From: a virus
Taxonomy: Duplodnaviria; Caudoviricetes
DNA: 64,000 nt
IMG/VR virus record: IMGVR_UViG_2843291059_000004
Coordinates: 70,479-134,478 of that record
Reading direction: 5' to 3' (one strand)
The position numbers were made by a program, and so were the translations under genes. Shown in pieces: positions 15,680-39,436 of this stretch (position 1 is the first letter of the stretch; the number at the start of each line of letters is the position of its first letter). The notes beneath the pieces were generated by a model. It was given only the letters and a program-made list of their open reading frames with translations, was not told the DNA's origin and made no database searches.

Positions 15680-16501
15680 ATGGCACTGAATATTGAAGTG
15701 GCCGAGCTGATGAAGCAGCCTGGTCGTGTTTATGAAGTTGCTGAGAAGACTCAGTACAATCGCGCTATGGATGCCGAGGACAAGGAAATTGCTGAGGTTG
15801 TTGGCGCTCATGTTGAGGAGCTGATTGACAAGGGTGACCCCAACAAGGAGATTGCTCAGTTTGTTAACCGCACCGTGACTGATGAGCTGTATGGTGCACC
15901 TGATGAGCTGCTGGACTCCATGTTTGAGCGTGGTAATGTTGGTGAGTTTGATGATTATGAGGCAGGTCGTACTGTTAAGAACACCCTGAAGGCTTATGAT
16001 GCAGCCAAGGGCGGCAACGTGCCGAAGTCTTACCTGCACTACGAGACCATTAAGCCCGTCTGGCGTAATAAGCAGATCGAGGCTGATCTTAGCTTTGTGG
16101 ATGTAAGACGCAATGCTTGGAAGAGTGTGGCAACTCTGACCACCTTTATGACTGAGGCTCTGAAGAACCAGATGTTCTATGACATCTTCAGCATGGTTGA
16201 TGACGCTATCACTGGTGGCGAGCAGAAGATCGATGCACAGGGTAAGGAGCCCACTATGCAGGACATGGACGCTCTGGCTCTGTATCTGAATGAGTACGCC
16301 GATGGTGGTAATCCCTTCACTGTCAGCCTGATGAAGTACTGTGCCAAGATGCGTCGTATGACCGGCTACGCTGAGTATCTGTCTGACGCAGCTAAGGACG
16401 AGTTTAACCGTTATGGTCTGGTTAAGACTTACGATGGTGTTGCTATTACTGGTATTAGCTCTGCCAAGAAGCTGGGTGATGGTTCCCTGCTGATCCCGGA
16501 T
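15680..16501 (+). CDS. major capsid protein, exon 1
   Basis: Strong codon bias; ends ...GSLLIPD at a group I 5' splice site (GAT|TAA). Confidence 0.85.
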
Positions 16502-18085
16502 TAAACTATGTAGTTTACATAAAATAGTCCAGTCGTGATGCAAATCACGATAAAAAATACACATTGAATTGCTGGAAAACCCTAAAACTACAATTACCAA
16601 AACAGAAGGATGAAATATGCCTAGATGGGTGGTCGCGAAAGCAGAAAGAAAATTGTAGATGATGCATGGTTAAAACCTAAACATAAAATAATGGGCAATC
16701 AGCAGCCAAGTTCCGAAAAGGAAAAGGTTCAACGACTATCCGCGTGGGAGCGGTTAGGATGCAAGTGTTTGGCATCCGAAGTGGTGTGCCCCAGTGTTTT
16801 TACTGGGTGAAGATATAGTCTTCACTCGTATGAGAGTACGAGGTTGCTAGATGCAACAAGAACGGAGTAGCGTCCGGTATAATGTTTATCTAATATTTAA
16901 TTTGACCAGATGTTGTGTAGAATGTCTGGCTTTTATTTTGCAAGAAAGGAGGTAGCATGGATGACACCAATGAGAACGACAGAAGACTTCAAAAAAGAAG
17001 TGTTTGATGTAAACCCAAATTTTGAAATTTTATCCGAATATAATGGTCTTCGAAAAAAGATTACCAGGAAATGTAAAGTATGCGGTGATGTACGTGAAGT
17101 ACAGGCAAGAATGTTGCTTGATAATCGTGGGTGTCAAGCATGTGTTGCCTCTAAGCGTGGAGCAGAAAAAAGAAAGTCGCCAATACAATTTTCCACGGAG
17201 CTGTTTGAAGTAAATCCTAATATTGAGTTGTTATCTGAATACACAACAAACAATGCGAGAGTGCATTGTCGTTGTAAACTTGATGGGCATGAGTGGAATG
17301 GCATACCTCATACATTGCTTGATGGACATGGGTGTCCAGAATGTTATCGACGGATTGCAAACAGACGAACGGAAGATGAATTCTTAAAAGAAATGCGTGA
17401 ACGATTTCCTACTATTCATGTTCTTTCAAAATATGTCCGTGTTGCTGTGAAAGTGGATTTTGCATGTGATGTTTGCGGTTACCATTGGACCGCAATTCCT
17501 GATACGATACTTAATAATAAAAATTCTGGTTGTCCAAAATGTGCTGGGAGAGCACATATTTTAGAGTCTGAAATGATAGAACGACTAAGAACGGTTTCTC
17601 CAAGTGTTGAGTATTTGAGCGGATATAAAAATATATTATCTCATGCAAATTTTAAATGTAAGAAATGTGGTTACAAATGGTCAACAGCTGTCAATTCAGT
17701 TCTTGGCGGGCATGGATGTCCAAAGTGTTGTTCTTCTCATGGTGAAGAAAAAGTATGCAATTATCTCGATAGTCATGGCATTGATTACATACGAGAATAC
17801 CGTTTTAAAGATTGTAAAAATGAACGGCAGCTTCCTTTTGATTTCTATATACCATCAAAAAACACTTGCATTGAATACGACGGGCAACAACATTTTATGC
17901 CTGTTAGGTTTAGCAAGAGTGTAACCGAATCCGACTCTATTAGTACATATAAAAGTCAGCAAAAGAAAGATTCTTTAAAAACAGAATATTGTAATCGTAA
18001 TGGAATCAAACTTATCAGAATTCCCTACACAGATTTTGATAATGTAGAAAATATTTTAGATAAACATTTTTCTTAAAAATTTTGG
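16502..18085 (+). mobile_element. group I intron in the major capsid gene (1584 nt) with homing endonuclease
   Basis: P1 GGAT/GTCC(16527) U.G; P AATTGCTGGAAA 16567; Q AATCAGCAGCC 16697; R GGTTCAACGACTA 16726; S AAGATATAGTCT 16810; ends ...TTTGG; in-frame join IPD|KRIYG. Confidence 0.92.
16961..18076 (+). CDS. intron-encoded homing endonuclease: four zinc-ribbon repeats plus a Vsr-like/PD-(D/E)XK domain
   Basis: AAGGAGGT RBS; repeated CxxCG..W..GCPxC; C-terminal PFDFYIP..IEYDGQQH; AT-rich relative to flanks. Confidence 0.8.
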   Translation: MTPMRTTEDFKKEVFDVNPNFEILSEYNGLRKKITRKCKVCGDVREVQARMLLDNRGCQACVASKRGAEKRKSPIQFSTELFEVNPNIELLSEYTTNNARVHCRCKLDGHEWNGIPHTLLDGHGCPECYRRIANRRTEDEFLKEMRERFPTIHVLSKYVRVAVKVDFACDVCGYHWTAIPDTILNNKNSGCPKCAGRAHILESEMIERLRTVSPSVEYLSGYKNILSHANFKCKKCGYKWSTAVNSVLGGHGCPKCCSSHGEEKVCNYLDSHGIDYIREYRFKDCKNERQLPFDFYIPSKNTCIEYDGQQHFMPVRFSKSVTESDSISTYKSQQKKDSLKTEYCNRNGIKLIRIPYTDFDNVENILDKHFS

Positions 18086-24077: not shown

Positions 24078-25067
24078 ATGGCTACAAGAAGTAAACCGCT
24101 GAAGTTATGGGATGCTGAGAAGTTCAAGAACGTGAACCCAGTGTCTTTGAAATACTGGGATAGATATGAGACTGATATGGGCATCCGTGATCTCAGCCCG
24201 TCTACTGTTTACAATTATGAATCGGATTTCAAGCAGTGGATGATTTATGTTTTGGACAATCAGGGTAATGCCCCTGTAACGGAACTTGAAGAAGAAGATA
24301 TTGAGGAATTTCTGTTCTATTGTAAGAAGCACGGAAACAACTCTGCTCGCATGAAACGGCGCATGAGTACGATTTCTGCGCTGTACCGGTATCTTCGCAA
24401 AAAGAAAATCATCAAAGAAAACCCGATGGAGTTTATTGACCGTCCAACCAAGGATGTGGCTGTTGTGAAGCAGACATATCTTACGCCGGATGAGGTCAAG
24501 TTGATGCGAGAGAAGCTGAATGCGTTGGTTGAATCTGCAACCACAGTTCACATGAAAGATAATGCGATGACGCTGCGGTTATACGCCCTGTTCTCGTTGT
24601 CTACGATGGCTCGTGTCAACGCCGTGCGGAATACGCTCTGGAAGTCTATCGACTATGAGAATCGTATGGTGCATGACGTTCTGGAGAAGGAAGGAAAAAT
24701 TGTTGATTTGATGTTCAGCAAGGAAGTTTCTGAGCTTTTAAAAGCGCTGAAGGAATACCGCACTGAGCATGATATTGAGGATGGCGGCTATGTGTTTGTT
24801 GGTACAAAAATCAATGGAGCTTGGATGCCGATTACTTCAAGCACTGCTGGCGACTGGTGTAAGAAGATTGGTGAGATGATCGATGAGCCTACGCTGCACC
24901 CGCATGACTTCCGGCATAGTGGTGCTACCCTGCTGAAGAATGCTGGTATGAGTCTGGAGGACGTCTCTTCCCTGCTCAATCATGCCGGTACAGATGTGAC
25001 CAATAAGTATTACATCAAGAAGGATACGACAAAAATTCAGTCTGCAAAGGATCGGTTTGAGATTTGA
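24078..25067 (+). CDS. tyrosine recombinase (XerC/D-like; YomM-like position)
   Basis: N-terminal SAM-like domain, MAR (R), EKEG (K), HDFRH, LNH, KYY catalytic residues. Confidence 0.9.
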   Translation: MATRSKPLKLWDAEKFKNVNPVSLKYWDRYETDMGIRDLSPSTVYNYESDFKQWMIYVLDNQGNAPVTELEEEDIEEFLFYCKKHGNNSARMKRRMSTISALYRYLRKKKIIKENPMEFIDRPTKDVAVVKQTYLTPDEVKLMREKLNALVESATTVHMKDNAMTLRLYALFSLSTMARVNAVRNTLWKSIDYENRMVHDVLEKEGKIVDLMFSKEVSELLKALKEYRTEHDIEDGGYVFVGTKINGAWMPITSSTAGDWCKKIGEMIDEPTLHPHDFRHSGATLLKNAGMSLEDVSSLLNHAGTDVTNKYYIKKDTTKIQSAKDRFEI

Positions 25068-25611: not shown

Positions 25612-25741
25612 AAGCCATCTTTTATGAGAATTTATTTGGAATAAAATTCAATGAGAGGAGGGCTGGCTTTAAGGAGCTGGCCGCTTCTCTTTTTTGTTTT
25701 GAAAGGAATGTTGAAAATGGAAAAGAGAGGTGACCAACGGT

Positions 25742-28147
25742 ATGGCGGATAACACAAACACCGTAAGTAGTGCTGATACTTCCTCTGTAACGGCCATAAA
25801 GGTCAAGGTCGTTCTTGATACGAGTAAAGCAGAACTCGATAAGCAATTCGAGTCCGTCAAAGAAAAATATAAAAATAGTCCGATTAAGCTGGCCTTTGGG
25901 TTGAATCAGAATGAGACCGCAAAGAACATCAATACCGCTTTGCGTAGTATGATTTCAAGCGGAAAAATCATCACCCCGAAGGTAACGCTTGATGTCAAGA
26001 TTGACCAGAGCAAAGTAACCGCACAGTTAAAGAAAGCTATGGCTTCTGCGGCCAAGCAGACGGTTAAGGTCAACACTGGGAGCGTAAAAAATAGCGCTAA
26101 AGCAAATTCGTCAGATGATGAATTTCAAAAACTTTATCAGCTTGAACAGAAACGAGCAAAACTTCTGGTCGATTCAGCCGCATTAACTGCAAATGGTAAG
26201 AAAGAATCAGAACTTAAAGCTGTAAATGATGAGCTGACTAAAACAAATACTCAGATGAAAGAACTATATAAGAATATAAAAAATGTTCTTTCTGAAAAAC
26301 AAAAATTACAGCTAACAAACATGGATTCCGATGCGCAATTCAAGGCAAGCAGGAAAACATTGAATGGCACAGATAATGCAACTCAAGAGCTAAAAAAACA
26401 GCAAAAAGCAACCGAAGATGACTTAAAACGCACCCTAAAGCAGCAAGAATCTATTTATGAAAATCGTAGAAAGCAAATTCAGGCTCTTGAGAATTATGCC
26501 AAGAATAACTCCAATTATAAAAATTCCAATATTCAAACTTATTTATATGGTGAAGACGGCACTGGTAATACATCTGGCAAAATAAAAGAGCTTCGAGAAC
26601 AGTTATCTCTTATTGAAAATACAGATCCGAGCAAGGCTGTTAAAGACTTTGATAAAAATTGTAAAGCACTTGATGGAACGCTCAATTCTACGAGTCAACA
26701 TCTGAAAGAGCTTGGGTTTGATTTTAGAGATTTAAAGCAAGCCAATGTTGACATGACAAAATTCAAAAGTGTCTACGAACGCGCAACAAAGTTAGAAAAC
26801 TCGATTTCAAATAAAAGCAAATATTCTTTCTTGATTGATAGCATAAATGGCATAAAATCGGCAGCATCTGGTTGTGAAGGCGATGTGACCGAACTCAGCG
26901 CAAGACTATCAAGCCTTGAGGTCGAAGCCAACAGATGTGGTGCGACAACTGAAACTTTAAGTCAAAAGCTGTCTCGTCTATTTAAGGAACACTTCCAGAC
27001 TGCCGTTGCAATGTATGGCGTTGCTATGGTTAAGCAGGGTCTGCGAGAGGTTTATAATAATGTCGTAGAGATAGACACATCTATGACTAACTTAAAAAAA
27101 GTCACAAATGAAACTGAATCGGCATACTCAAGCTTTTTGTCGTCTGCTTCAAGTCAGGCGCGTGAGCTTGGCGCTTCTATCTCGGATGTTATTGATAGTA
27201 CAGCAGAATGGTCTCGTCTAGGCTATACACTGGACGAATCACAAGAGCTTGCAAAGTGGTCCACTGTCCTAAGTAACATTGGTGATGGAATTGATAGTGC
27301 ATCTGACGCAGCTTCTTATCTAGTCTCTATTCTAAAGGGATTTAGAATGGAAGCTGACGAAGTAGAACACGTCGTCAATGTTCTTAACTCGGTGGGTAAC
27401 AACGAACCCATCTCCGAAAGTGGTATTGCGGAGGCACTCGTAAGATCGGCAAGTGCATTATCGGCAGCCGGGAACTCGTTTGAAGAGTCCGTTTCGTTGA
27501 TTAGTGCAGCCAACTCTGTACTTCAGGACCCGGATACCGTAGGCACAACTTTGAAAACAATTTCAATGTATCTGCGAGCCAGTAAGACAGACGCGGAGGC
27601 ATTTGGTGTTTCAGTTGATGACATGGCAGATTCTGTTTCGGAACTTCGAAGCGAGTTGAAGTCTCTGACTGGCGTTGACATTATGAAGGATTCCGCCGGT
27701 ACAGAATTTAAGAGTACATATCAGATCCTAAAAGAGATTTCTGCCGTATGGGATAAACTTACTGATGTTAGTAAAGCTAACGTCACAGAGATGCTTGGTG
27801 GCAAAAGAAACTCGAATGCGGTACTTTCCGTGATCGAGCAATTCTCCATTGCTGAAAAATCAATGGAGGATGCCGCTAACAGTTCTAATTCGGCAATGAC
27901 CGAACAAGAGCGTATGATGGACTCAATTGAGGGTCGTTTAAAGCGGCTTAACGCCAGCTTTGAGAAATTCTCAAACGACGTTCTAAGTAGTGATCTAGTC
28001 AAGTTCTTTGTGACTCTTGCTACGAAGATTGTTGACGCAGCAGACGGGATGGTTAATCTTGCAGGTTCTATTCCGGCCATTACAGCTGCCATCTCTGGCG
28101 TGTTGTCTGTAATGCAGATGAGCGGAAAGCTCAAGAATGGTGCGGGT
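25742..28147 (+). CDS. tail tape measure protein, exon 1 (802 aa, TP901-type core)
   Basis: GAGGTG RBS; EIDTSMTNLKKVT, VGTTLKTISM tape-measure motifs; ends KNGAG at GGT| 5' splice site. Confidence 0.9.
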
Positions 28148-28640
28148 AAAGTTAATATGCCCTCTTATATTTGTTGTGTATAAAAAATATAGGATGCGGC
28201 ACCATGTAAAAATAAAATAGCCCCTAGAGTGCTGGGAAACCCTAAGAGCCATATCGCCTATATTTATATAATGTAGGAATCGAAAGATAGAAACAAGGAT
28301 ATGGATGCTATATGCTGAGATAAAAGCTCGGTTTTATCGTATTGTTAAAATATGGTAATAATTGAGTGCTAAGTAGTATTTACAATGGGCGGTCAGCAGC
28401 CGATCCACTCCCCTATTATATAATGTAGGAGAGCGGAAGGTTCATCGACTAAAAAGGGTCAGTGAGCAACCACTGGAAGGATAGTCAGTTCTGGACGAAA
28501 GTTCAGAAGTCCACCTCAGACGTAACCAGACGACTTAAAGAAGTAGGTGGAATGAGGAGACACGCTGTTCTCTGGCGCGATACAAGTAAGAGAAAAATGA
28601 TTGAATAATTGAACAAAAAGAAAAAGTACACTGTTGTTCG

Positions 28641-28669
28641 TTGACAGCGTACTCTAAAAAGTGTATAAT
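28641..28669 (+). promoter_or_regulatory. consensus sigma-A promoter for the putative antitoxin sRNA
   Basis: TTGACA-17-TATAAT. Confidence 0.85.
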
Positions 28670-28674
28670 AAAAA

Positions 28675-28790
28675 CAGCCAAGGACTCCTATAGACGAAGC
28701 CCTCGGTGAACAGTTTAAAATGCAATGTAAATGCTTGGACACATTCACATCACAGAAAGAGCCACCTACTGCTAATAGGCGGCTCTTTTA
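28675..28790 (+). ncRNA. putative type I antitoxin sRNA (~115 nt)
   Basis: Lies between a consensus promoter and the terminator 28756-28789; contains CATTCACATCAC, complementary to the toxin start region. Confidence 0.6.
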
Positions 28791-28913
28791 CTTATCACGG
28801 CTTTCGCTATGATGATGTAACATCTTGAAAATCTCAAGAAGCGTTTTGACAAAGCCAGCAAAGCCGAAAATCAGCATTGCGACATAGTAGACCGTAGTGA
28901 TCTCAATAGTCAT
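28788..28913 (-). CDS. 41-aa single-TM peptide, putative type I toxin (MTIEITTVYYVAMLIFGFAGFVKTLLEIFKMLHHHSESRDK)
   Basis: GAGGAGTG RBS, hydrophobic N-half with charged tail, long structured 5' leader, own promoter. Confidence 0.7.
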   Translation of the reverse strand: MTIEITTVYYVAMLIFGFAGFVKTLLEIFKMLHHHSESRDK

Positions 28914-29060
28914 TACACATCACTCCTCTCGGTAGACTCACCGAAAGGGAGTAAAAGATATGGCATTCTCCTTCTCGCCTTTCGGCTGAATGGGAGGACG
29001 TTCGCCTATACACGTCTATGAAAGGAAGAAAGTAAACGCGGAATCCTTGACTGCCAGATT

Positions 29061-29090
29061 ATTATACACCCGTCTGTCATATCCTGTCAA
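29061..29090 (-). promoter_or_regulatory. sigma-A promoter for the toxin mRNA
   Basis: TTGACA-18-TATAAT on the minus strand. Confidence 0.75.
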
Positions 29091-29200
29091 TATCACTATA
29101 ATGTAATTTATAATACATAAAAAAGAGATTGCTTTCCTGAAGTTTTCTGGCTATAATATAAGTACAATCGTGTATCCAAAATATATGGAGGTATTTTATT

Positions 29201-29533
29201 ATGGCTAGACCCAAAGGAAGCAAGAACAAAGCAAAGGTTCTTGATGGCGTTGATTATGCAGCGCAGATCGCTGAGAAGAATGCCGCAGCGGAATCTATCG
29301 CTGAAGAAATCGCATCTCTCGGCTCGAATATTGCTGCACTGAATGCTGAGAAAAAAGCAAAAGAAGCAGAGCTGAAAAAACTCAATAAAGAGATTGCAAA
29401 ACTCGAAAAGAAAAAGGCTGATGCCGATGAAAAGATTGCGGCAGAGTTGAATCGCAAAAAGGCAGAAGACATTGTTGCCAACGCACTGGCCAATGGCATG
29501 ACTGCTGAAGATATCGCTGAACTTTTGAAGTAA
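29201..29533 (+). CDS. AT-hook-like/coiled-coil protein (intron cargo)
   Basis: MARPKGSKNK N-terminus; promoter TTGCTT-17-TATAAT 29129-29157; terminator 29550-29587. Confidence 0.8.
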   Translation: MARPKGSKNKAKVLDGVDYAAQIAEKNAAAESIAEEIASLGSNIAALNAEKKAKEAELKKLNKEIAKLEKKKADADEKIAAELNRKKAEDIVANALANGMTAEDIAELLK

Positions 29534-29592
29534 GGTATCATCATAAAACAAAGCCCGACTTCCCTACTACTGGGAGGCCGGGCTTTTGCTAT

Positions 29593-29793
29593 TTAGTCTT
29601 CGAATTTGATAACGCCGCACTGTTTAAGTATGGCTATTATAATTTTAATTGTAGCGCCCATACTTAAACAAATCATATTGGCTATCTGCTCAGTTTGAGA
29701 TTTTCCCTCGAGTCCTCGCATTTTTTGCATTAAAAGATCGATACCGTTGTTCGTTTCAGTCTCTAAGATTTCATTAAATTCTTTATGCGTCAT
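29593..29793 (-). CDS. 66-aa hypothetical protein (intron cargo), paralogue of 31060..31266
   Basis: AAGGAGGT RBS; promoter TTGACA-18-TATAAT 29880-29851. Confidence 0.7.
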   Translation of the reverse strand: MTHKEFNEILETETNNGIDLLMQKMRGLEGKSQTEQIANMICLSMGATIKIIIAILKQCGVIKFED

Positions 29794-29975
29794 AACTGGC
29801 GACCTCCTTTCAGTTGGAATTTTAGCATAGTACATAGTGATTGCTTATCTATTATAGGATATATCGTAATATCTTGTCAATCTCTGTTTTGGATTATTGT
29901 GGAGCCCTGTGTAGCAAAGTTTAGTTGACACTATCTCTGAACCGTGATACACTCTTGTAAAAGGAGTGTTAAATC

Positions 29976-30173
29976 ATGGAAAACAATAAGAAGCATGTGC
30001 CGGATTATGAAATTTCGACTTACAGTAATCGGAAACCGACTGAATATACATATTCAGGGAATGGTAGTTCTGCAAATCCACTGGAAACATATTTGAGAAA
30101 TCATAGCGACAATCATTCAAATTATAATCAAGAAGGAGGAGCAGATGACAGAGATAATCAAACTAATAAATAA
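29976..30173 (+). CDS. 65-aa low-complexity protein (intron cargo)
   Basis: AAGGAG RBS; promoter TTGACA-17-TACACT 29925-29953. Confidence 0.6.
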   Translation: MENNKKHVPDYEISTYSNRKPTEYTYSGNGSSANPLETYLRNHSDNHSNYNQEGGADDRDNQTNK

Positions 30174-30756
30174 TGTAGAGACACTTTTCAATATCTTTGT
30201 TCCAGGTGCTATTTGCGTATGGTGTTACTCTAAGTTATCCTTGCGGAAAATGGAATACCAAGGATATCTCACTCTTAGTATTGCCATTGGTTTCGTAATT
30301 AAATACTGTGTGGATTACGCTGACCGTTTGCTAGGACGGTTTACAATTGCTGGATTTCCGATAATTGTTGTGTACGTTTTAGTTGGAATCATCGGAGCTA
30401 TCATTTTTTATAAAGGAAAGAATTCGATTTGTGTAAGACGCAATGTGTCGAAATTTCTTGGTGTTGACTCTGGTGACAATGTTTGGACAAGGCATCTCGA
30501 TCCAGAAGGAAACTTGCTTACACTCCATATGGATGATGACACATATATTCTTGGATTGTTTGAGAATGCAGACGATGAGTATATTACACTGACGAATTAT
30601 TGCTATGCAAAAACGCCTGCTGGAAAAGATATGGATGAGGCTGCACAAAAGCCATACACTGATGCTGTTTTATGCGTTCCAACAAAGCGAGTTAAGCAAT
30701 TTGAAATTTTGTATCCAAACCCTGAGTCCAAAACTGCAAAGTATGTTCTGCGTTAA
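30145..30756 (+). CDS. 3-TM membrane protein with a C-terminal beta domain (DUF6338-like; intron cargo)
   Basis: IFVPG, three hydrophobic helices, NVW, YILG; terminator 30774-30801. Confidence 0.65.
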   Translation: MTEIIKLINNVETLFNIFVPGAICVWCYSKLSLRKMEYQGYLTLSIAIGFVIKYCVDYADRLLGRFTIAGFPIIVVYVLVGIIGAIIFYKGKNSICVRRNVSKFLGVDSGDNVWTRHLDPEGNLLTLHMDDDTYILGLFENADDEYITLTNYCYAKTPAGKDMDEAAQKPYTDAVLCVPTKRVKQFEILYPNPESKTAKYVLR

Positions 30757-30807
30757 AACAAATACGACCACTACCCTGCTACTTTGTGTAGCAGGGCTTT
30801 TCTTTTG

Positions 30808-30897
30808 TCACCACTCATACCCACAATTCTTACACTTGAACTGTTTGCCGGGCTTTCTGCTTGCCCAGCCCCATATTGCTACATCAACCAACTTTGC
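30808..30897 (-). pseudogene. 3' remnant of the Zn-ribbon gene (AKLVDVAIWGWASRKPGKQFKCKNCGYEW*)
   Basis: Aligns with the C-terminus of 32514..32927. Confidence 0.8.
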
Positions 30898-30923
30898 ATT
30901 TTTTAATCGAGGTGAATTCGTAT

Positions 30924-31076
30924 ATGAAAATTGAAATTGAAACAAAAGAACTCACTGCCTTTCTTGACTATATCAAGGGGCAGCGAGAACCTATTGGTAA
31001 CACTCAAGTATTAGCTGAGGAAGTTGTTAAGGGACTGCCTCAAAAAATCACTTCACAACTCAATCTTCGTACTTGA
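30924..31076 (+). CDS. 50-aa hypothetical protein (MKIEIETKEL...; intron cargo)
   Basis: GAGGTG RBS. Confidence 0.6.
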   Translation: MKIEIETKELTAFLDYIKGQREPIGNTQVLAEEVVKGLPQKITSQLNLRT

Positions 31077-31266
31077 GTACACCAATTTTTTCGAGAGTAG
31101 CAACAAGAGATGCGGTGGCGTCTGTGACTGCCATATTGTACGCAGCGGCGACCATTTGCTCAACTGTTATCTTCTTGTCTTCTCTTTCCGACAGAACGTT
31201 GGCAAAATCATTCAGATTCTTCTCGATCTCGTCCTGAAGAATCTTATTAAATTCTTCTCTAGTCAT
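31060..31266 (-). CDS. 68-aa hypothetical protein (intron cargo), paralogue of 29593..29793
   Basis: AGGAGG RBS; MTREEFNKIL...GVLKYED versus MTHKEFNEIL...GVIKFED. Confidence 0.75.
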   Translation of the reverse strand: MTREEFNKILQDEIEKNLNDFANVLSEREDKKITVEQMVAAAYNMAVTDATASLVATLEKIGVLKYED

Positions 31267-31358
31267 TGTAGTCTCCTCCTTTCTTCTAGTCTTTATTTAA
31301 GTCTACCATAAAAAGACAAAATGTAAAGAGAACGGGAGGTCACATTTGACGTAGAATG

Positions 31359-31660
31359 TTAGAACTCATACCCACATGCCTTACATTTAAACTGCTTTCC
31401 AGGTTTCTTACTCGCAAATCCCCAAATTGCTACATCAACCAGTTTAGAGCCTGCACCTATTTTGTCGAGATGGGGGCATCCGCAGACGGGGCATTTTGGG
31501 GTGTAAACAGGTTTTGCTACTTCTGGAGTTTTGGTTTCAGCGCCTCTTCCCTCTCGGCTCTCACCTTAGCGTCAAAATCGTTAAAGTCTTTTTCGAGTTG
31601 GCTATCACCATCAAACGGATTTGTTACCACACGTCTTGGTTCGCCAGAGCCATAATCAGA
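31359..31660 (-). pseudogene. 5'-truncated, frameshifted copy of the Zn-ribbon gene
   Basis: ..NDFDAKVRAEREE / PVYTPKCPVCGCPHLDKIGAGSKLVDVAIWGFASKKPGKQFKCKACGYEF*; frame change near 31520. Confidence 0.8.
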
Positions 31661-31697
31661 GACACGTTAATTCACATCCTTTTCTTTGGAGGTATTT

Positions 31698-31919
31698 ATG
31701 TATTATTTTGCACATTACGAAAAAGATCAAAACTATTTTGCGTCTGATTGTAATAACTCAAAGGACGGAAGTGTTGAAGCTAAAATTTGGAACAAAGGAA
31801 CTCATTCTTGGGAGCAGAAATGTTTTTCTGCGTTCGAAGAATTCAAAGCTTTTACGGATCAACTATGTATGGCTGACGAGGGATCTCTGTCACGCGGTAA
31901 GATTCAGTATCATCTATGA
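31698..31919 (+). CDS. 73-aa hypothetical protein (intron cargo; 3' end overlaps the convergent gene)
   Basis: GGAGGT RBS, ATG 31698. Confidence 0.5.
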   Translation: MYYFAHYEKDQNYFASDCNNSKDGSVEAKIWNKGTHSWEQKCFSAFEEFKAFTDQLCMADEGSLSRGKIQYHL

Positions 31920-32496
31920 CGATTAAATCGACTTCTTCACTTACGGAGTCATATTTCTTTGCGGTCAAAGAAGTCATTTTCTTTACGAAGTCAACCATAT
32001 TAGAGAAGTCCATATTACTAATATCGTAGTTGCCTTTATGAAACTCTTCTGTGTATACGTCGTGCATTCCAGATGCCACAGCATAGTCTATCCCAATATT
32101 GGGGTGAACTATTTTACTACTTGTGTCTGTATAAAGAATGACGTTATTTCCATCTTCAATAGCCGCATCGATTAGGTAAACAATATTTTTGCTGGTTCTT
32201 GCTGATAATTCCTGTAAGAGAAAATTGAGCTCTTCTTTTACGGACATTAACATCATGTCAGAAATTTTTAAGAGGTCAAGAATTACAATATGTGTTTTCT
32301 GTTTATTATCTAATTCGCCAGCTCCGGTGAATGCAACTGCGTGACCTTGTTTGGTTAGGTAAGATTTCTGAGCAAAGTTGTCGTGCCATTCTTCCACTAT
32401 TTTATTAGTATCAGGGTCCGTTAGTGTAATTGTTGTACACACATCAGTGGATACAACAATACCGTTTTTGTTACAGACAGCTAGTGCTAGAGACAT
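31852..32496 (-). CDS. Ntn-hydrolase/proteasome-beta-like protein (intron cargo)
   Basis: MSLALAV..GIVVSTD N-terminus, K..G.AVAFTG, ASG, SVS..VD pattern. Confidence 0.55.
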   Translation of the reverse strand: MSLALAVCNKNGIVVSTDVCTTITLTDPDTNKIVEEWHDNFAQKSYLTKQGHAVAFTGAGELDNKQKTHIVILDLLKISDMMLMSVKEELNFLLQELSARTSKNIVYLIDAAIEDGNNVILYTDTSSKIVHPNIGIDYAVASGMHDVYTEEFHKGNYDISNMDFSNMVDFVKKMTSLTAKKYDSVSEEVDLIVIDDTESYRVTEIPRQPYIVDP

Positions 32497-32513
32497 TCTA
32501 ATTCACTTCCCTC

Positions 32514-32927
32514 TTACCATTCGTAACCACAGTTATCGCAATGAAACTGAACTCTAGGCTTACGCGCCAGCAGTCCCCAAACGGCGGCGTCAACTAATTT
32601 TGCCGTGGTTGATACTTTGTGAATGTTGGGGCTATGACAGGTTGGGCAGGTAGGCACATACTTCGGATGTTCTTTCTCCTCCAAATCGGCTCTATATTGA
32701 GCGTCAAAGGCATTGGCTTTATCTTGCATCTCTTTAACAAAATTCGGGTCTAATTCTGAGATATCTCTTTTGGGTCTGTTTGTAAACCTCCAATTGATTT
32801 TTTTCTGCTCGCTCATTCCGTTCCATTGAGGCAATAGAATAGTATCTCTCAAACAAAACGCGCACAACAAATCTCTTTTATGGTAATATTTGTCGCAAAA
32901 TGGGCAATACCGTACATATTCTTCCAT
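32514..32927 (-). CDS. double zinc-ribbon protein (intact copy; intron cargo)
   Basis: CPFC..CAFC and CPTC..CDNCGYEW; GAGGAG RBS. Confidence 0.8.
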   Translation of the reverse strand: MEEYVRYCPFCDKYYHKRDLLCAFCLRDTILLPQWNGMSEQKKINWRFTNRPKRDISELDPNFVKEMQDKANAFDAQYRADLEEKEHPKYVPTCPTCHSPNIHKVSTTAKLVDAAVWGLLARKPRVQFHCDNCGYEW

Positions 32928-32950
32928 GATTTCTCTTCTCCTCGAAATCG

Positions 32951-35900
32951 ATATTAACTTTCTTCACGGTAGATGCTAACATTCAAAAGTTACAAATTCA
33001 GACATTTTCTAAAATAAAAGCGTCTCTTGTTGACTTAATCGCGCAATACAAAGCATACAAAAAGGCTTTGGGCGAGACAAATCTTTCCATATCTGATTTT
33101 ATCAAATGGCTAATCTCTGGTCAAGCCCCAATTGATGCTACGAAGTTAAAGATTTTGGCTCTTCGTGGTGCTGCGTTACTTTTGAATATGGCCCTTGGTG
33201 TTGTTACTGGGCTTGTAGTTTCCTCTCTTATTGGTGCGATTACAAGCTATACACAGCGGATTGATACAGCAGCTACAAAAACGAAAGAAGCTGCTGATGC
33301 GGCCAACAACACGACTTCTTCCTTGAAGGATTTAGTCGATGCCTACAAAGAACTTGGTGACAAGTCTGGTTGGAGTACAGAAGATTTTGACCAAGCAAAG
33401 GATATCCAAGAGGAGCTTTTGGCTCTTGCAAAAGAACAAGGCACTCTTGACGAAAACAAAGCAAATCAGCTTGATCTTCAAAATGGAAAATATGAAGAAC
33501 AACTTGGTTTGCTGAAGGATATCACGGAAGAACAGCTCAAAGATTCCGAGTCGAAGTTGATGCAATCCAAGGATGCTCAAAGCAATAAGCTAGTTAAAAC
33601 AGCAAAAGATAACAATCGCTCTCATTTCTTTAGTTCTATTTCTGCAAATGCCAACCTTGGTATTATGAATGAGTTAAAGGATGCGGGGATTGATGTATTC
33701 AATAAGAGCGGTGATTTTGGCGTAAAAGACCTTAATAGTCCAGATTCTATTGCAAAGTATTATTCCGAACTTGGTAGAGCTTTAGATTATATTGTTCAAA
33801 ATACAACTGAAGCACAAAGAGCAGCCGGAGGTGCGTATCATACTGTTTATCAGTATTTAATGGATGAAGAAGCCGCACTTCATGATGATGTGGATGCTTA
33901 CAATGATTCTACCGATGCCATCAACAATAATACGAATGCTCGTAGAAAGCTTCAAGCTGTAGATTTTTGGCAGAATGACAATAATAACAGTATGGATGTT
34001 AGCTTTACTTTTGATAAAGTAAATTCTGCCGTTCAAACACTGGAAGATACAATTGATGGGTTTGATGCTAGTAAACTAAATGAACTCTTATGGGGTACAA
34101 ACGAAGGATTGTCTGATGAGCAAGCTCAAGCTCTCGCAAATCTTCGTAAGGCTCTAACCGACATGGACTTCTCCGCTGATACAAACGGCGTGAATGCGTT
34201 TATCCAAGCACTTGTTCAAGTTGGTATTGTAGCTCAGTCTTCTGCAAATGATGTTGATGCGGTAGCACAAGCTTCTCAGAAGATGGAGGATATCTCCTCT
34301 AAGATTGATGAGATTCAGACTGCTTATAAGAATGCGACCACCGCTATTGAGGAGTACAATAAATATGGCTATTTGAGTGCGGACACACTCCAAACTCTTC
34401 TTAATGAAGACTTCGAGTATCTGAGTTGTCTCGAACTCGTTGATGGTCAGCTTCAGGTGAATACCGAGAAGTATCAGGGTATGATTGCCGCTCAGTATCA
34501 GTCTGCGGCCATGGCTCTTGTTGAGAAAGCAAATGCGGAGCTTGCAAAGATTGCTCAGGGCGAAAAGAAGGATGCAGTCGAGGATGCAACCAAGGCAACA
34601 GAAGACCAAGCAACAGCTTTGACTGAACGGGTCTGTCCTGCCCTTGGCGAGTTTGCAAAAGCATCTATGACAGCCGCTGCAGCACAAGAGTTCTTGGCAA
34701 ATGGAGATGCAGCATGGTCTGTTGACCCAGAAAGGACTAAAGAGGTCTATGCTGGCCTTGCTTCTGGTTTAGATATTTTGGACGCAACTGTTGACCAAAT
34801 TATGGGCAATTCGGATAAGTTCCGTCAGCACATGAATGGTTTTGATAAGGAAACCAAGAACCGGAATAAGAATACTGCCAAATCTGTAACTGATGTAGCT
34901 TCTGCCTTCGATACCTTAAATAAGGCAATGAAGGAGTATAACCAGTATGGTTATCTGTGTGCTGACACAGCAAAGTCTTTGATTGGTCTGGATGATAAGT
35001 TCACGGCTTGCCTAACAAAGCAAGGCGATAAGCTCCAAATCAATGTAGAGCAGTTCCGTAAGTTTGTGAAAGAACAACTCAAAGAAGCGAATGCCGCAAA
35101 AGATGGCGGAAAATCAGCTGATGAGATGAATAAAATTCTGAATTATCTTGATCAGAATGTAGATACAACAACCATCTCTTTTGAGCAGCTGACTGACGCT
35201 ATCAAGGGTTACGGCACTGCGATGGATGAAGCCAAGGAAAAGACGGACGCTATAAAATCCGCATTTTCTGACTTATACAGTGTTGGCTTGAATAAGCAAG
35301 ACAACGATTTTGGGTTCTTAGATTCGGATGATATCGAGAAGAAATTCCAAGCTATCCGTAATTTATATGGTAACACAGATTTGTTTACCAATCAAGCATA
35401 TAAAGATGCTTTGAATCCAGAAACCGGTGAGATTGATTACAATAGCGATGCATTCAAGCAGATGTTTGCTGATTATCTCGCAGGGCTTGCAACAACTGCT
35501 CGTGAGACTGGTGGTGAGGCTGGAGAATATCTTGCTCAAGGTTTTGAGGACGCTGCGGCTAAGATCTCTCAGAATGTGATGAGCATTCGCGAGTACATCG
35601 ACGGTATTGGTTCTTCGATTGAACGTGCCAACAATCAGATTGATGGGTTCCAGAGCGCATTTTCTGACATCCAAGACATTGTTAAAGAGTATAATACCTA
35701 TGGTGGTCTGAGCATTGATAATTATCAGAAGCTCATGAGTCTGAGTGACGACCAAATCAAATGCTTGAAACTTGAAGGCGACCAGATCAAGTTTGATACG
35801 CAGCTTTACAAAGAACTCTTCAAATTAAAGATTCAAGCAATGATTGACGAGTATGACAAGGCTGACCAGACAAAAGCTCTTGCTCAACGACTTCGTGAAT

Positions 35901-38900
35901 TACTTGCGGCAGTTGATAAGGCTGGCGATGGATTTACCAGTGCGGCTGATAAGGCCAAGAATTTCGAAGACACCCTTTCGAATATCAAATCACTTTTATC
36001 TGACTTGATTGGTGTCTTTGAACAGTTCAATACGGACAAGTCCAATGACCTCAAGATTCAGGGCGACGCATGGCTTGACGTGATTGACAAGCGAATCGAT
36101 GCACTGAATGAACAGAATGATGCCCAGGAACGAGCCATTGAACTCTCCAAAGCTCAGGACGCACTCGAAAAAGCCAAAGCTAATAAGACTGTCCATGTTT
36201 ATCATGCCGGCGGAAGTGGCTTCGAGTGGGAGGCTGACCAGAACGCCGTTCGTGATGCACAGTCTACACTGGATGACACGATTCGAAAGAACCGCAAAGA
36301 GGACGAGATTGATCGACTGAACAAACTGAAGAAGGCCGTCCAGGAAAATAACGAGCTGATTGGCTCCAGTTTTGAGGATTATGAGAAGAAGAAGAAATAT
36401 CTCGCAGAGTTCGACAAGATGACCTACGATGATATGATTTCTTACAATGAAAATTGGAAAAACTCTATCCTCGGCAATATGAAATCCACACAGGTCGTCA
36501 CGAATGTCAACGAAATTATCACTAAAATTGAGAAGCTGATTACGACACTTGAGACTCTGAATAATGTGCTGACGTGGATTAGTACGCTTGGAAAGAGCAC
36601 AGACGGTGGCGGACTGACTGGTCTGTTTAGCAAGAATGGTCTGTTTGGCAATATCGGTAATTTCATAAGTACAGCGAAAACAAAGGGGCTCGAAACAGCA
36701 GCGAAGGAAGTAATTGGAACATTCCTAGACAATACCGGTGCGGCACTCGAAGCGAATGCAGACAATCCTATCATTAAAGCGGCAACTGGTCTATGGGATA
36801 AGTTAAAGGGAATTTTCTCTGGTAAAATTGTAGCGACAGGCGTTGAAGCTGGTGTGGACGAGACTCTGGCTACTTTGGCGAAAAAAGAAGTCGTTCAAAA
36901 AGGCGCTGGCAATCTACTCACACGGTTCGGTGGAGCTGCGGCGACAACTGGAGCATCTACAGCGGCGACAACTGGAGCAGGAACTGCCACGGTAACTACT
37001 GGTATTTCTTCTATTCCTGTCGTTGGCGCACTTATTGCGGTCGCTGTAAATAACGCTGTTCAGCAATTCGGTAAGATCAGTAAAGAAAACACCAAGATCT
37101 GGGCAGATCAAAATAGCACGACTGGTGAGAAGATCGTAAGCAGTGTTGGTAACGTGCTCTATCACCTCTCCCCTGTTGAGGGTTGGGATAAGTCGGTTCA
37201 ATATGCTAAGATGGCCGCTGAGGGCGAAGGTCTGTGGCAAAAATTAGAATATGGTGCGAAATCCCTATACTATGCGACTGGCCTTGGTACGATGCTGGAC
37301 AATATCTGGAACACCATCAAGAGTATTCTCAAAGTCTTCGGTGTGAAGTTCAAGGAAAGTGGCGATGGTGTCAGCACATCTAGTTCTGTTTCTGGCAAAA
37401 AGGGTGTTGGCTCGTGGAAGATCTGGCCGTGGAACTGGGGCAAAAAGGCAAAAGGCGATAAGAAAATCAAGAAGTCTGCTCCGTACAATGTTGATGAAGA
37501 AGGCGACGAAATTATCGTCCGTAAGCCTCAGACTGGCCGGATGACCTATCTCGAAAAGGGCGACGGTGTTATTCCTGCAAATGAGACTGAGAATCTGATG
37601 ACGATCGGTAAAAACCCGCTCAAGTGGTTGACTGAAAATGTCGGTAAGATTCTTGGCGCTTCTGCCGCGAAAGATGTCGTAGAAGGCAAGGTCGATGAAG
37701 GGGCTGTCACAAAAGCTTCTCAGGTTCTTGCAAGCTCTGTTGTGAACACTTTCTCTTCTGCATGGAATACCGTGAAGATGAGCACAGAAGACCTGATTGA
37801 CTCCATGAATGACTCGTTCCAGGGCGGGTCAACAAGTGTTACGACGGCTGCTGGCACCATTCTTAGCCGAGTCAAGACCATGTTTGGCAAGGCCAATATG
37901 GGGAAACTGTTGGGCAGCTTCAGCTCCGGTGTTTCTGGCGCTATCTCAAAGAGCGCAAAAGAGTATTCTTCTACTACGGAACTGTTGAGTGGTACAAAGA
38001 GCAAAACCATCGACACAATGAACAAGATGCGGTCTACGTTTGAAAGTACGTGGGCTTCTGTGGCAAAAGAGACTGGCGTAAGCAAAGATAAGATCACTTC
38101 GATTAGTTCTGAAATGTTCAGCAAGATGGAAGCCTTGGTGAATCAGACGTACGATGCGATCGACAGCAACGCCGGTATGAGTTCTGACCAACTGAATGAC
38201 ATCACAAAGAGTTTGTTCCAGTCGATGCAGAGCATTTACACTTCTGGTTGGAATGCCGTCTATGCTACTTCTACTGGCATGTCTCAGGAAACCGCAAATA
38301 CACTGAATTCCGCATATAAGTCCTCTTCTGATGGCTGCACCAAGGCAATGGATACCATCCGTAACACGATGGTCGGCAGCTGGGAGCAGTGCGGCGGTGG
38401 CGTTCAGAATTTGGCAAATGGTACCTACCAGACACTGAGTAAAGCATGGGCAGATTCCAGCGGAAGCGCAGAGAAGATGCTCTATGATACCCGTGCCTGC
38501 TTTGATTCTGGCTGGGGTGCTGTGGAACAGGGTGTCAGCAGTTTGGCAAATAACCCGAAAGACAAGCTTTCAACAGCTTGGGCAGAAATTACTTCTCAGA
38601 GTAATGCTACATTTGGTGCGGAAGGTACACTGAAGACCGATGCAGACAATGCTTGGAAGAATGTGGAGCCGGGCGCTACGAACTTGTCGAAGAATATGCA
38701 GTGGACCATGGATCAGGCTTACCTCGCTACAAAGCAGGGCTGCTCTGATACCGTCAATTCTGTCAATACAAACCTTAATTCGACGTCAGCAGGTTTCAGT
38801 GCGATTGCCAGCGCAATTGATGCTGTCAACAAAAAAGCATCCGATTCGGAAGAAGTTGCAAAGAATACAGGACACGCATGGTATGAATGGGTGCTGAATC

Positions 38901-39436
38901 CAGTTGGCACTTTGCTTGACACGGTTACAAAATATAACACAGAAGACAAATCAAAGAACAATTTTTTACAAAATGCTGTTCATACAGTCACACATCCGAT
39001 CAGTTCGGTTGTAGAATCAGTAAAATACCTTGGAAATGCTGCAAAGGATTTCTTTGGTGGTCTATTTGGCAAACACGCTTCCGGCTTAAAGTCTGCATCT
39101 AAGAGTCATTTCGCCAATGTTGACGAGCTTGGCCCTGAGCTTCTGGTTCGTAAGCCACAATCTGGTCGTTACACTTACCTCGAAACTGGTGATGGTGTGG
39201 TGCCTGCTGATATTACATCGAAATTGTTTGAGATGGGTGGCAACCCGAACAAGTGGTTCTCTGAACAGATGGCTAAGTATGGTTCTCAGGCGATTACTAC
39301 GAAGAGCACTGGCAACACCAGTTTCTCGACTGGTAATATTGTGATCAACAATCCTGTTGGCAACTCTGAGGATCTGGCTTCTGAAATCAAGAAGAACTTC
39401 TCGACCCGGATGGCGCAGGAATGGAATAAGCGCTAA
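32951..39436 (+). CDS. tail tape measure protein, exon 2 (2161 aa; spliced product ~2963 aa)
   Basis: Frame open from 32930; no convincing RBS at TTG 33068; helical Ala/Thr-rich with W-periodic repeats; joins as KNGAG|ILTFFTVD. Confidence 0.88.
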   Translation: MLTFFTVDANIQKLQIQTFSKIKASLVDLIAQYKAYKKALGETNLSISDFIKWLISGQAPIDATKLKILALRGAALLLNMALGVVTGLVVSSLIGAITSYTQRIDTAATKTKEAADAANNTTSSLKDLVDAYKELGDKSGWSTEDFDQAKDIQEELLALAKEQGTLDENKANQLDLQNGKYEEQLGLLKDITEEQLKDSESKLMQSKDAQSNKLVKTAKDNNRSHFFSSISANANLGIMNELKDAGIDVFNKSGDFGVKDLNSPDSIAKYYSELGRALDYIVQNTTEAQRAAGGAYHTVYQYLMDEEAALHDDVDAYNDSTDAINNNTNARRKLQAVDFWQNDNNNSMDVSFTFDKVNSAVQTLEDTIDGFDASKLNELLWGTNEGLSDEQAQALANLRKALTDMDFSADTNGVNAFIQALVQVGIVAQSSANDVDAVAQASQKMEDISSKIDEIQTAYKNATTAIEEYNKYGYLSADTLQTLLNEDFEYLSCLELVDGQLQVNTEKYQGMIAAQYQSAAMALVEKANAELAKIAQGEKKDAVEDATKATEDQATALTERVCPALGEFAKASMTAAAAQEFLANGDAAWSVDPERTKEVYAGLASGLDILDATVDQIMGNSDKFRQHMNGFDKETKNRNKNTAKSVTDVASAFDTLNKAMKEYNQYGYLCADTAKSLIGLDDKFTACLTKQGDKLQINVEQFRKFVKEQLKEANAAKDGGKSADEMNKILNYLDQNVDTTTISFEQLTDAIKGYGTAMDEAKEKTDAIKSAFSDLYSVGLNKQDNDFGFLDSDDIEKKFQAIRNLYGNTDLFTNQAYKDALNPETGEIDYNSDAFKQMFADYLAGLATTARETGGEAGEYLAQGFEDAAAKISQNVMSIREYIDGIGSSIERANNQIDGFQSAFSDIQDIVKEYNTYGGLSIDNYQKLMSLSDDQIKCLKLEGDQIKFDTQLYKELFKLKIQAMIDEYDKADQTKALAQRLRELLAAVDKAGDGFTSAADKAKNFEDTLSNIKSLLSDLIGVFEQFNTDKSNDLKIQGDAWLDVIDKRIDALNEQNDAQERAIELSKAQDALEKAKANKTVHVYHAGGSGFEWEADQNAVRDAQSTLDDTIRKNRKEDEIDRLNKLKKAVQENNELIGSSFEDYEKKKKYLAEFDKMTYDDMISYNENWKNSILGNMKSTQVVTNVNEIITKIEKLITTLETLNNVLTWISTLGKSTDGGGLTGLFSKNGLFGNIGNFISTAKTKGLETAAKEVIGTFLDNTGAALEANADNPIIKAATGLWDKLKGIFSGKIVATGVEAGVDETLATLAKKEVVQKGAGNLLTRFGGAAATTGASTAATTGAGTATVTTGISSIPVVGALIAVAVNNAVQQFGKISKENTKIWADQNSTTGEKIVSSVGNVLYHLSPVEGWDKSVQYAKMAAEGEGLWQKLEYGAKSLYYATGLGTMLDNIWNTIKSILKVFGVKFKESGDGVSTSSSVSGKKGVGSWKIWPWNWGKKAKGDKKIKKSAPYNVDEEGDEIIVRKPQTGRMTYLEKGDGVIPANETENLMTIGKNPLKWLTENVGKILGASAAKDVVEGKVDEGAVTKASQVLASSVVNTFSSAWNTVKMSTEDLIDSMNDSFQGGSTSVTTAAGTILSRVKTMFGKANMGKLLGSFSSGVSGAISKSAKEYSSTTELLSGTKSKTIDTMNKMRSTFESTWASVAKETGVSKDKITSISSEMFSKMEALVNQTYDAIDSNAGMSSDQLNDITKSLFQSMQSIYTSGWNAVYATSTGMSQETANTLNSAYKSSSDGCTKAMDTIRNTMVGSWEQCGGGVQNLANGTYQTLSKAWADSSGSAEKMLYDTRACFDSGWGAVEQGVSSLANNPKDKLSTAWAEITSQSNATFGAEGTLKTDADNAWKNVEPGATNLSKNMQWTMDQAYLATKQGCSDTVNSVNTNLNSTSAGFSAIASAIDAVNKKASDSEEVAKNTGHAWYEWVLNPVGTLLDTVTKYNTEDKSKNNFLQNAVHTVTHPISSVVESVKYLGNAAKDFFGGLFGKHASGLKSASKSHFANVDELGPELLVRKPQSGRYTYLETGDGVVPADITSKLFEMGGNPNKWFSEQMAKYGSQAITTKSTGNTSFSTGNIVINNPVGNSEDLASEIKKNFSTRMAQEWNKR

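Follow-up and report, generated by a model that had tools for sequence, protein, structure and literature searches.

Truncated relics of a zinc-ribbon gene lie inward of an intact copy at the 3' end of a predicted intron in a phage tape-measure gene

In a 64,000-nt stretch of phage DNA (the window; bases 70479-134478 of the 134-kb virus record IMGVR_UViG_2843291059_000004, which is classed as provirus) we found three copies of one zinc-ribbon gene (Zn) inside a predicted group-I-type intron that splits the tape-measure gene (TMP). One copy is intact and stands at the 3' end of the intron, and two copies that have lost their 5' ends lie further inward with different genes between them. These three sequences probably represent one living gene and two dead predecessors from the same gene family. 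Related introns showed the same polarity of copies, together with fossil splice-site motifs, a nested series of gene orders, mosaic Zn genes and decay of the shortened copies. On balance we favour an explanation in which different introns recombine unequally and selection retains those products in which the 3' splice site works and the terminal Zn gene, to which we refer as the anchor, is intact.

A tblastn search with the 137-aa Zn protein against the whole record matched exactly three places: 32517..32927 (100%, E 1e-100), 31362..31523 (residues 84-137, 46% identity, E 3e-15) and 30811..30900 (residues 108-137, 67% identity, E 4e-10). A profile of 23 family members placed the copies at profile positions 1-138, 85-138 and 109-138, with distances of 23, 1427 and 2050 nt to the predicted 3' splice site, all on the minus strand and antisense to TMP. 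Both searches agreed with the initial annotation of this DNA, which had described an intact copy at 32514..32927 and same-strand relics at 31359..~31660 and 30808..30897, separated by different genes. Zn1 (32514..32927) is the intact anchor gene for a 137-aa protein with two zinc ribbons, and its start codon lies 23 nt from the 3' splice site. Zn2 (31359..31660) is a 5'-truncated and frameshifted relic in which profile positions 85-138 remain in frame; it has no usable start codon, and part of the sequence for its central helix (31517..31630) is shifted to another frame. Compared with the DNA of an intact relative it carries indels of 3 nt and 20 nt, and no homology is left over the 5' ~130 nt, a stretch in which the plus-strand gene p73 now starts. 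An intact, terminal Zn gene of the same C-domain type is present in three related loci (L044, L024 and L122). Zn3 (30808..30897) is a 3' relic of 30 codons, covering profile positions 109-138 within a 45-codon open reading frame (ORF) that starts with TTG; in locus L114, where the terminal Zn gene is intact, the 3' end of that gene is collinear with it. The genes p214 and p73 lie between Zn1 and Zn2, and p68 and p50 between Zn2 and Zn3; p214 and p68 follow Zn1 and Zn2, respectively, as their downstream passengers.

Copies on the same strand, in the same order and with a common C-terminal motif could in principle stem from a simple local tandem duplication of one Zn gene and later divergence. 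However, a self-comparison found no duplicated flanks around the copies; duplicated flanks were an outcome that, according to the initial annotation, would have spoken against its own proposal. Apart from the Zn ends (85 nt, 76% identity) and a helix piece of 33 nt, there were no repeats. In addition, the shortened copies are 46-67% identical to Zn1 and yet show ~73-83% DNA identity to intact or relic copies of their own C-domain type in other phages. The data contradict such a duplication, and we consider it extremely unlikely.

Zn1 found 29 loci in IMG/VR, and the Zn-baited set was counted as 30 loci. A 29-nt bait taken from the ribozyme core, and independent of Zn, retrieved 109 more stretches, 26 of which held further distinct complete introns. 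The resulting comparison set consisted of 56 intron sequences (30 Zn-baited and 26 core-baited only) with lengths from 2235 to 6149 nt. A full-length antisense Zn gene was present at the 3' end of all 56, and in each the start codon of this gene and the predicted 3' splice site were 19-28 nt apart. This universal terminal position indicates that the Zn gene is a fixed part of the element and not ordinary cargo, and the short spacing implies that its ribosome-binding site overlaps the last bases of the intron. All further Zn copies were on the same strand as the terminal copy. About 49 were partial, each running to the stop codon and lacking the 5' end, and the number of 3'-truncated copies was zero. 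Relics started at profile positions 14, 79, 85, 88, 92, 106, 110/111 and 122/123, corresponding to at least eight truncation classes, and several relic lineages had upstream stop codons or changes at W117, G118, D113 or C130, residues that are invariant in every full copy. Zn-Zn tandems without a passenger also occurred. Compared with each other, the relatives shared the ribozyme-proximal part, made of the core, an optional small-peptide/antisense-RNA module resembling type I toxin-antitoxin (TA) systems and the coiled-coil gene p110. Past p110 they carried alternative modules, namely p65-p203, a Panacea-domain antitoxin with a partner gene, or p50 with a small ORF and a retropepsin-like gene. 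The most variable part, Zn genes and their neighbours, lay next to the 3' splice site. A shared distal part, a variable part near the splice site and repeated Zn copies or stubs had been expected from the initial annotation; identical cargo orders, its other stated counter-argument, were excluded by the differing orders among the relatives.

The short copies might instead be working parts, either as single-ribbon mini-proteins or as sequences for expressing or terminating neighbouring genes, and would then be conserved for this role. The form covering positions 92-138 retains all invariant residues and a possible GTG start codon, passengers begin 4-20 nt past the Zn stop codon, and c30 in L024 and L028 is an open 104-codon chimaera ending in a Zn tail. 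On the other hand, Zn2 of the window is frameshifted and without a start codon, and Zn3-type stubs have upstream stops and changes at the invariant W117, G118 and C130 in several lineages and abut terminators, not passengers. We therefore regard a working role of the short copies as improbable.

Further support for the succession of units came from the splice-site motif itself. In eight relatives (L006-L009, L016, L025, L017 and L064) a fossil 3' splice-site motif, CTCTCCTCAAATTAG followed across the splice point by ATATTATCTTTCTT, sits 19-20 nt before a second, subterminal full Zn copy, and the stop codon of the newer terminal copy lies ~30 nt beyond it. This motif marks a former terminal unit that was internalised together with its splice-site motif and a few exon-like bases. 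In front of internal Zn copies facing the gene c28, homology fades over ~10 nt around a candidate breakpoint at omega-G. Gene orders can moreover be arranged in a nested series. In L114 the order is core-p110-p65-p203-Zn, and the Zn3-type gene is intact and terminal; in L044 a Zn3-type stub is followed by p50-p68-Zn, and the Zn2-type gene is intact and terminal; the window extends the L044 layout by p73-p214-Zn1. Shared blocks in this series are collinear, with DNA identities of 74% and 77%.

The Zn genes are also mosaic. In the window, 32637..32950 (the 5' two-thirds of Zn1 and the intron end) is 97-99.7% identical to L004-L009, and 32516..32648 (the last 133 nt of Zn1) is 90% identical to L028-L031. 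Among pairs of full Zn copies compared at 85% identity, 70 share both domains, 54 share the N domain alone and 62 the C domain alone; N-domain similarity follows the flank upstream of the gene, and C-domain similarity the flank downstream. A 49-nt core of Zn3 (30810..30858) is 94-98% identical in ten loci, with unrelated flanks on both sides. L025 corresponds to L006 minus one unit (one p214 gene and one Zn stub), joined within 35 nt common to the 5' ends of two p214 paralogues (L025 intron coordinates ~3190-3260), which on sequence would be a contraction or its reverse. The same units stand at different ranks in different phages, for example in L032 and L019. Uncoupled domains, nearly identical Zn ends between unrelated flanks, changing ranks and contraction by paralogue recombination would all be expected if modules were swapped anywhere at short conserved linkers such as the Zn 3' ends and if random deletions were added. 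Layering would then be only apparent: selection would keep the copy at the 3' splice site intact, and all others would decay. Such direction-free exchange alone leaves unexplained the fossil 3' splice-site motifs with their few exon-2-like bases, the nested L114/L044/window series and why none of the at least eight truncation classes is 3'-truncated, and we consider it rather unlikely as the whole explanation.

These observations modify two proposals of the initial annotation. Entry of new units at the 3' end agrees with the intact terminal copies, the 5'-truncated relics, the fossil motifs and the nested series, but arrays also contract and reorder, and L032 carries a stub between two full copies. 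Selection that keeps the terminal copy intact may contribute no less to the polarity than directed entry. The added unit, moreover, is not always a Zn gene with its passenger, since Zn-Zn tandems lack one, and the mosaic Zn genes have breakpoints inside them.

From these patterns we infer a recombination route in which the anchor is under selection. The stretch from the ribozyme to the anchor is predicted to be removed from the tail mRNA and would therefore tolerate insertions. Different introns would meet by co-infection or when a phage encounters a prophage. In an unequal recombination between them, one junction would fall in or just beyond the resident anchor gene and the other in homologous DNA to the right, which could be exon 2, the splice-site motif or the 5' portion of the anchor gene. 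The recombinant would consist of the left part of one intron and the right part of another, beginning at the left edge of a complete unit. The incoming block of small convergent gene, passenger and anchor would land beside the 3' splice site, and the old anchor would lose its 5' end and move inward with its own passenger. Survival would be limited to recombinants in which the 3' splice site works and the terminal anchor is intact, and this selection would produce the polarity. Relics would decay, and recombination between paralogous Zn or passenger genes would shorten or reorder the arrays. Reciprocal junctions, in which the terminal anchor would be 3'-truncated, were not found, as expected if an intact anchor is required, or the splice-site sequences that overlap its 5' end. 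Such growth, in which older units are displaced from an anchored end, fits the data and resembles that of the orphan modules at rhs and cdi loci. The model, which we regard as reasonably likely, needs no dedicated machinery and accounts for the terminal copy in every intron, truncation from one side alone, the fossil motifs, the mosaicism of the Zn genes and the nested series.

Dedicated site-specific capture in the style of integrons or integrative islands, acting in or beside the terminal Zn gene, would also account for strict polarity, and an intact end target with displaced 3' stubs is the arrangement at tRNA-gene integration sites. In L006-type loci a 12-14-nt ATATTAWCTTTCTT motif is duplicated around the newest unit, which would suit such a process, and candidate enzymes would be the Zn protein or a tyrosine recombinase encoded at 24078..25064 (Phage_integrase, E 1e-20). 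The recombinase gene lies within the tail module, two genes upstream of TMP and outside the intron, and could be the prophage integrase or something else. However, Brevibacillus phage Sundance, in which TMP is annotated as single and uninterrupted, has an integrase-annotated gene at the matching place, and neither a catalytic motif nor a nuclease fold is recognisable in the Zn protein. Stub starts are scattered from 14 to 123 and do not mark one site. A repeat search of 28166..33100 found no inverted repeats at unit boundaries, and there were neither attC-like repeats nor conserved cassette ends nor a recombinase inside the intron. The initial annotation had likened the growth of the array to integrons or orphan toxin cassettes; integron-like machinery is not present, and we judge site-specific capture to be very unlikely.

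The placement of the intron at 28166..32950 (plus strand, 4785 nt), with a 5' ribozyme, a cargo island, a 3' splice site after G32950 and both junctions in phase 0, is based on the P1 helix, the conservation of the core, the 3' motif and the open frame of exon 2. In the tail module of the window TMP is found in two ORFs, 25730..28183 and 33068..39436. The first matched PhageMin_Tail in Pfam (E 1e-25) and phrog_4211 in PHROGs (E 9e-78) and aligns with residues 668-1087 of the uninterrupted 2528-aa TMP of the SPbeta-like phage Sundance. The second gave weak matches to tape-measure PHROGs, further along the same profiles as the first. Cultured phages gave no match to the first 300 aa of exon 2, and the similarity of exon 2 to the Sundance TMP was not significant. 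Exon 1 (25730..28165, plus strand) ends with AAT ATG CCC TCT, its 5' splice site being set by P1 pairing and conservation, and exon 2 (32951..39436, plus strand) begins with ATA TTA ACT TTC; here and across the loci exon 2 is not preceded by a conserved start codon or ribosome-binding site. A scan of bacterial genomes for the ribozyme core gave a single match, in a Faecalibacterium metagenome-assembled genome. We describe the element as a predicted group-I-type intron of 2.2-6.2 kb that splits the TMP of ~130-kb SPbeta-like Faecalibacterium phages.

At its 5' end the intron matched the Rfam family Intron_gpI over the full length of the model (28161..28507, E 0.0035) with a sub-threshold score of 24.6 bits (gathering score 50). 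The conserved ribozyme-like core (28166..28600, plus strand) is 93-96% identical across loci whose exon 1 proteins are only ~57% identical. In the P1 helix the exon end CU and the intron start UAUAUUU pair with AAAUAUAGG, a U.G pair stands at the 5' splice site, and the variable pair covaries among 95 distinct sequences (A-U 76, G.U 9, G-C 4, A.C 2). At the other end, the last 23 nt (32928..32950) are the antisense of the Zn1 ribosome-binding site and end in omega-G. The 3' end motif TCTCCTC(N5-12)G, followed by RTRTTWHCTTTC after the splice site, is conserved across loci, with a variant form in L028 and L029, and the exon 2 sequences beyond it are very divergent (36-98% protein identity). The frame was open from the first base past the G in 28 of 30 loci, over 379-2161 codons and in many cases as far as the fetched sequence extends; in L028 and L029, which have the variant motif, the analysis covered the location of the intron ends. 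The same rule placed the 3' end of 26 further introns. Omega-G and phase-0 junctions were found in all 56 intron sequences, the predicted exon ligation restoring one reading frame. For the window the predicted ligated-exon junction joins CCCTCT to ATATTAACTTTC, T28165 to A32951.

Three additional observations concern ribozymes in the window and its relatives. GAGGAGA in the conserved region past the core (28560-28572) and TCTCCTC shortly ahead of the 3' splice site (32935-32947; also antisense to the Zn1 ribosome-binding site) are complementary, a potential long-range pairing that may draw the distant 3' splice site to the core. In L022 (~12450-12855) and L029 an insertion of ~400 nt, which has no Rfam family match and no convincing ORF, interrupts the ribozyme core at the position corresponding to 28403/28438 of the window, and Rfam does not detect the core once it is interrupted in this way. 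A second group I intron in the window, at 16506-16842, scored 80.7 bits, well over the threshold, and lies between ORFs 15680..16504 and 16910..18076.

Several points weigh against successive growth of a spliced intron from its 3' end. Splicing, and the use of the distal rather than a fossil 3' splice site, are deduced from sequence comparison, the Rfam score falls below the gathering score, and an exact IMG/VR search for the ligated-exon junction of an intron-less TMP allele gave zero matches. At 74-77% identity the nested series would reflect architecture and not direct ancestry, and in some nested comparisons loss could mimic gain. Many of the ~49 partial copies are orthologous, which reduces the independent events to few (about eight). 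The 47-codon stub between two full copies in L032 means that polarity is not absolute, and some relics, such as the 92-138 form, could be working mini-genes. Finally, universal presence is the sole observation that points to an essential role of the terminal gene.

The Zn protein has 137 aa, with an N-terminal zinc ribbon, a long charged helix and a C-terminal zinc ribbon. Invariant positions are occupied by Cys, Pro, Trp, Tyr, Lys, Asp, Gly and Glu, and no His is conserved. No family in Pfam, PHROGs or PADLOC was matched above threshold, and the model of the protein gave no structural match and no nuclease fold. As regards homing endonucleases, we found no LAGLIDADG, GIY-YIG, HNH, His-Cys box, PD-(D/E)XK or EDxHD motif or fold. 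All of its 73 relatives are unnamed, and the neighbours in a protein atlas are generic zinc ribbons. A candidate antisense promoter for Zn1 in exon 2 (33124..33096) was dropped as it is not conserved across exon-2 types. The terminal Zn gene might encode an essential intron factor, perhaps one that acts in mobility, or one that binds RNA and helps the ribozyme to reach the distant 3' splice site. Through the coupling of this gene to the splice site the intron would become a dedicated growth zone, a ribozyme-built functional analogue of an integron. This idea is speculative and we think it unlikely; if it were true, phages could bank and swap protease-type accessory or defence cassettes without harm to the tail gene.

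Among the passengers, p214 (31852..32496, minus strand) starts 17 nt past the stop codon of Zn1. Its AlphaFold2 model (predicted local distance difference test score 90.8) matched 20S proteasome beta subunits in Foldseek with E ~1e-8 and template modelling scores of 0.65-0.72. In its family D18 and K44 are invariant and S2 is near-invariant. The model thus suggests a proteasome-beta/HslV-like N-terminal nucleophile fold, an alpha-beta-beta-alpha sandwich with the predicted N-terminal nucleophile and equivalents of Asp17 and Lys33. The family is small, with 25 representatives among 1.84 billion proteins. An IMG/VR scan with a distant p214 relative found two more loci: L145, inspected in full, is another variant of the same intron, and L146 has a full Zn gene directly upstream of the p214 match together with the splice-site motif. 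The second passenger, p68 (31060..31266, minus strand), is located downstream of Zn2 and follows the intact terminal Zn gene in L044. A paralogue of p68, p80 (29593..29835, minus strand; 28% identity, E 3e-8), lies deeper in the intron without a Zn remnant and has its own consensus promoter (29880..29851). The minus-strand passengers are each overlapped at their 3' end by a small plus-strand gene, the 5' end of which abuts the next, truncated Zn copy. In the window p73 (31698..31919), with a GGAGG ribosome-binding site and in place of the lost 5' end of Zn2, overlaps p214 in this way, and p50 (30924..31076) overlaps p68 and abuts the Zn3 relic; in relatives c7, c14 and c28 take this position, as in the convergent pairs c7/p214a, c14/p214c and c28/c8. 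On its other side, the Zn3 stop codon abuts the terminator (30774..30806, plus strand) of the p65-p203 module. No matches were found for p214, p68, p80, p73, p50 and p203 in Pfam, PHROGs or PADLOC. In relatives a retropepsin-like passenger was detected (Asp_protease_2, E 6e-9), which also matched the PADLOC defence candidate PDC-M08B (E 1.6e-8). Retropepsin-like Zn passenger genes are found at L022:10478-10969 (minus strand) and L017:9429-9866, and the presence of the retropepsin-like gene on the opposite strand in other loci implies that blocks are also inverted. The gene c30 (L024:11080-11391) joins an unrelated N-terminal part to the last ~22 Zn codons within an open 104-codon frame; its start overlaps the stop of an upstream p214-like gene, and it may be a working chimaera and not a relic.

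Near the ribozyme the window carries at 28641-29090 a convergent pair with perfect consensus promoters, which is present in some relatives and missing from others. It consists of a plus-strand RNA of ~115 nt, which has its promoter at 28641..28669, its terminator at 28769..28790 and a weak match to the Enterococcus small RNA A9, and of a minus-strand gene for a 41-aa hydrophobic peptide (28788..28913, promoter 29090..29061). By its sequence this pair looks like a type I TA module. In many relatives a gene for a SocA/Panacea-domain antitoxin (E 5e-20) and then one for a 198-aa protein without a family match replace p65-p203 (L006:13420-13869 and L025:12027-12620, minus strand), and these two genes are probably an intron-borne TA pair. 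Cargo genes have their own consensus promoters and terminators on both strands. Together with the TA-type modules this gives the cargo the appearance of accessory genes that are expressed in the prophage and do not disturb the late operon. As to function, our guess would be prophage-expressed accessory or defence-type modules.

Self-splicing introns are usually viewed as small selfish elements with at most a homing endonuclease. The interior of the intron described here would be a safe harbour that grows from one end and keeps a readable record of its past states as relic genes and fossil splice-site motifs. It might therefore represent a natural system for understanding how phages add accessory genes within an essential late gene. 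To our knowledge an antisense anchor gene locked to a 3' splice site has not been described before. The analysis further delimits a small set of uncharacterised cassettes, a zinc-ribbon gene with a proteasome-like or retropepsin-like gene, for which a role in phage-host conflict can be tested.

With respect to known systems, IStrons join a 5' group I ribozyme to an element of the IS605/IS607 insertion sequence type, as described by Tourasse et al. (2014, PMC4227781). The likeness is a 5' ribozyme followed by protein-coding cargo, all of it removed via a distant 3' splice site, which for the present intron is a prediction. The present element differs in that its cargo is not a transposon but a hypervariable stretch of up to ~5.7 kb with the Zn anchor gene at its end; Pfam and PHROGs gave no match to TnpA/TnpB or an IS605/IS607-type transposase in the window or in the cargo of its relatives.

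Island accretion at the 3' ends of tRNA and tmRNA genes shares with the intron an intact end target and displaced 3' stubs that mark earlier events, the oldest farthest away. Here, by contrast, units do not each have an integrase, the crossover site is not constant, and the target encodes a protein. Integrons resemble the intron as stores of accessory genes in which new units stand beside one fixed end and older ones farther away, an analogy of outcome only. No IntI-type integrase adjoins the present array, no recombinase was found among the intron ORFs with Pfam and PHROGs, and there is no attI or attC; junction positions are variable, and the units have their own promoters on both strands.

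Orphan C-terminal toxin/immunity modules of rhs and cdiA genes form arrays in which a full-length gene at a fixed end is followed by 5'-truncated earlier versions, each with a downstream partner. The fragments keep a conserved stretch that permits recombination back onto the main gene, and such arrays grow by displacement. The part that is repeated in the intron is the conserved C-terminal zinc ribbon and not a variable toxin domain, and the partners are protease-like genes (proteasome-like or retropepsin-like) with a small convergent gene and not immunity proteins; no toxin or immunity family was matched. The array also differs from Rhs and contact-dependent growth inhibition systems in its position, antisense inside a predicted spliced intron of a phage structural gene. 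What the window and its relatives have in common with those systems is the arrangement: first a full-length gene, then fragments that lack the 5' end, each of them with a downstream partner of its own.

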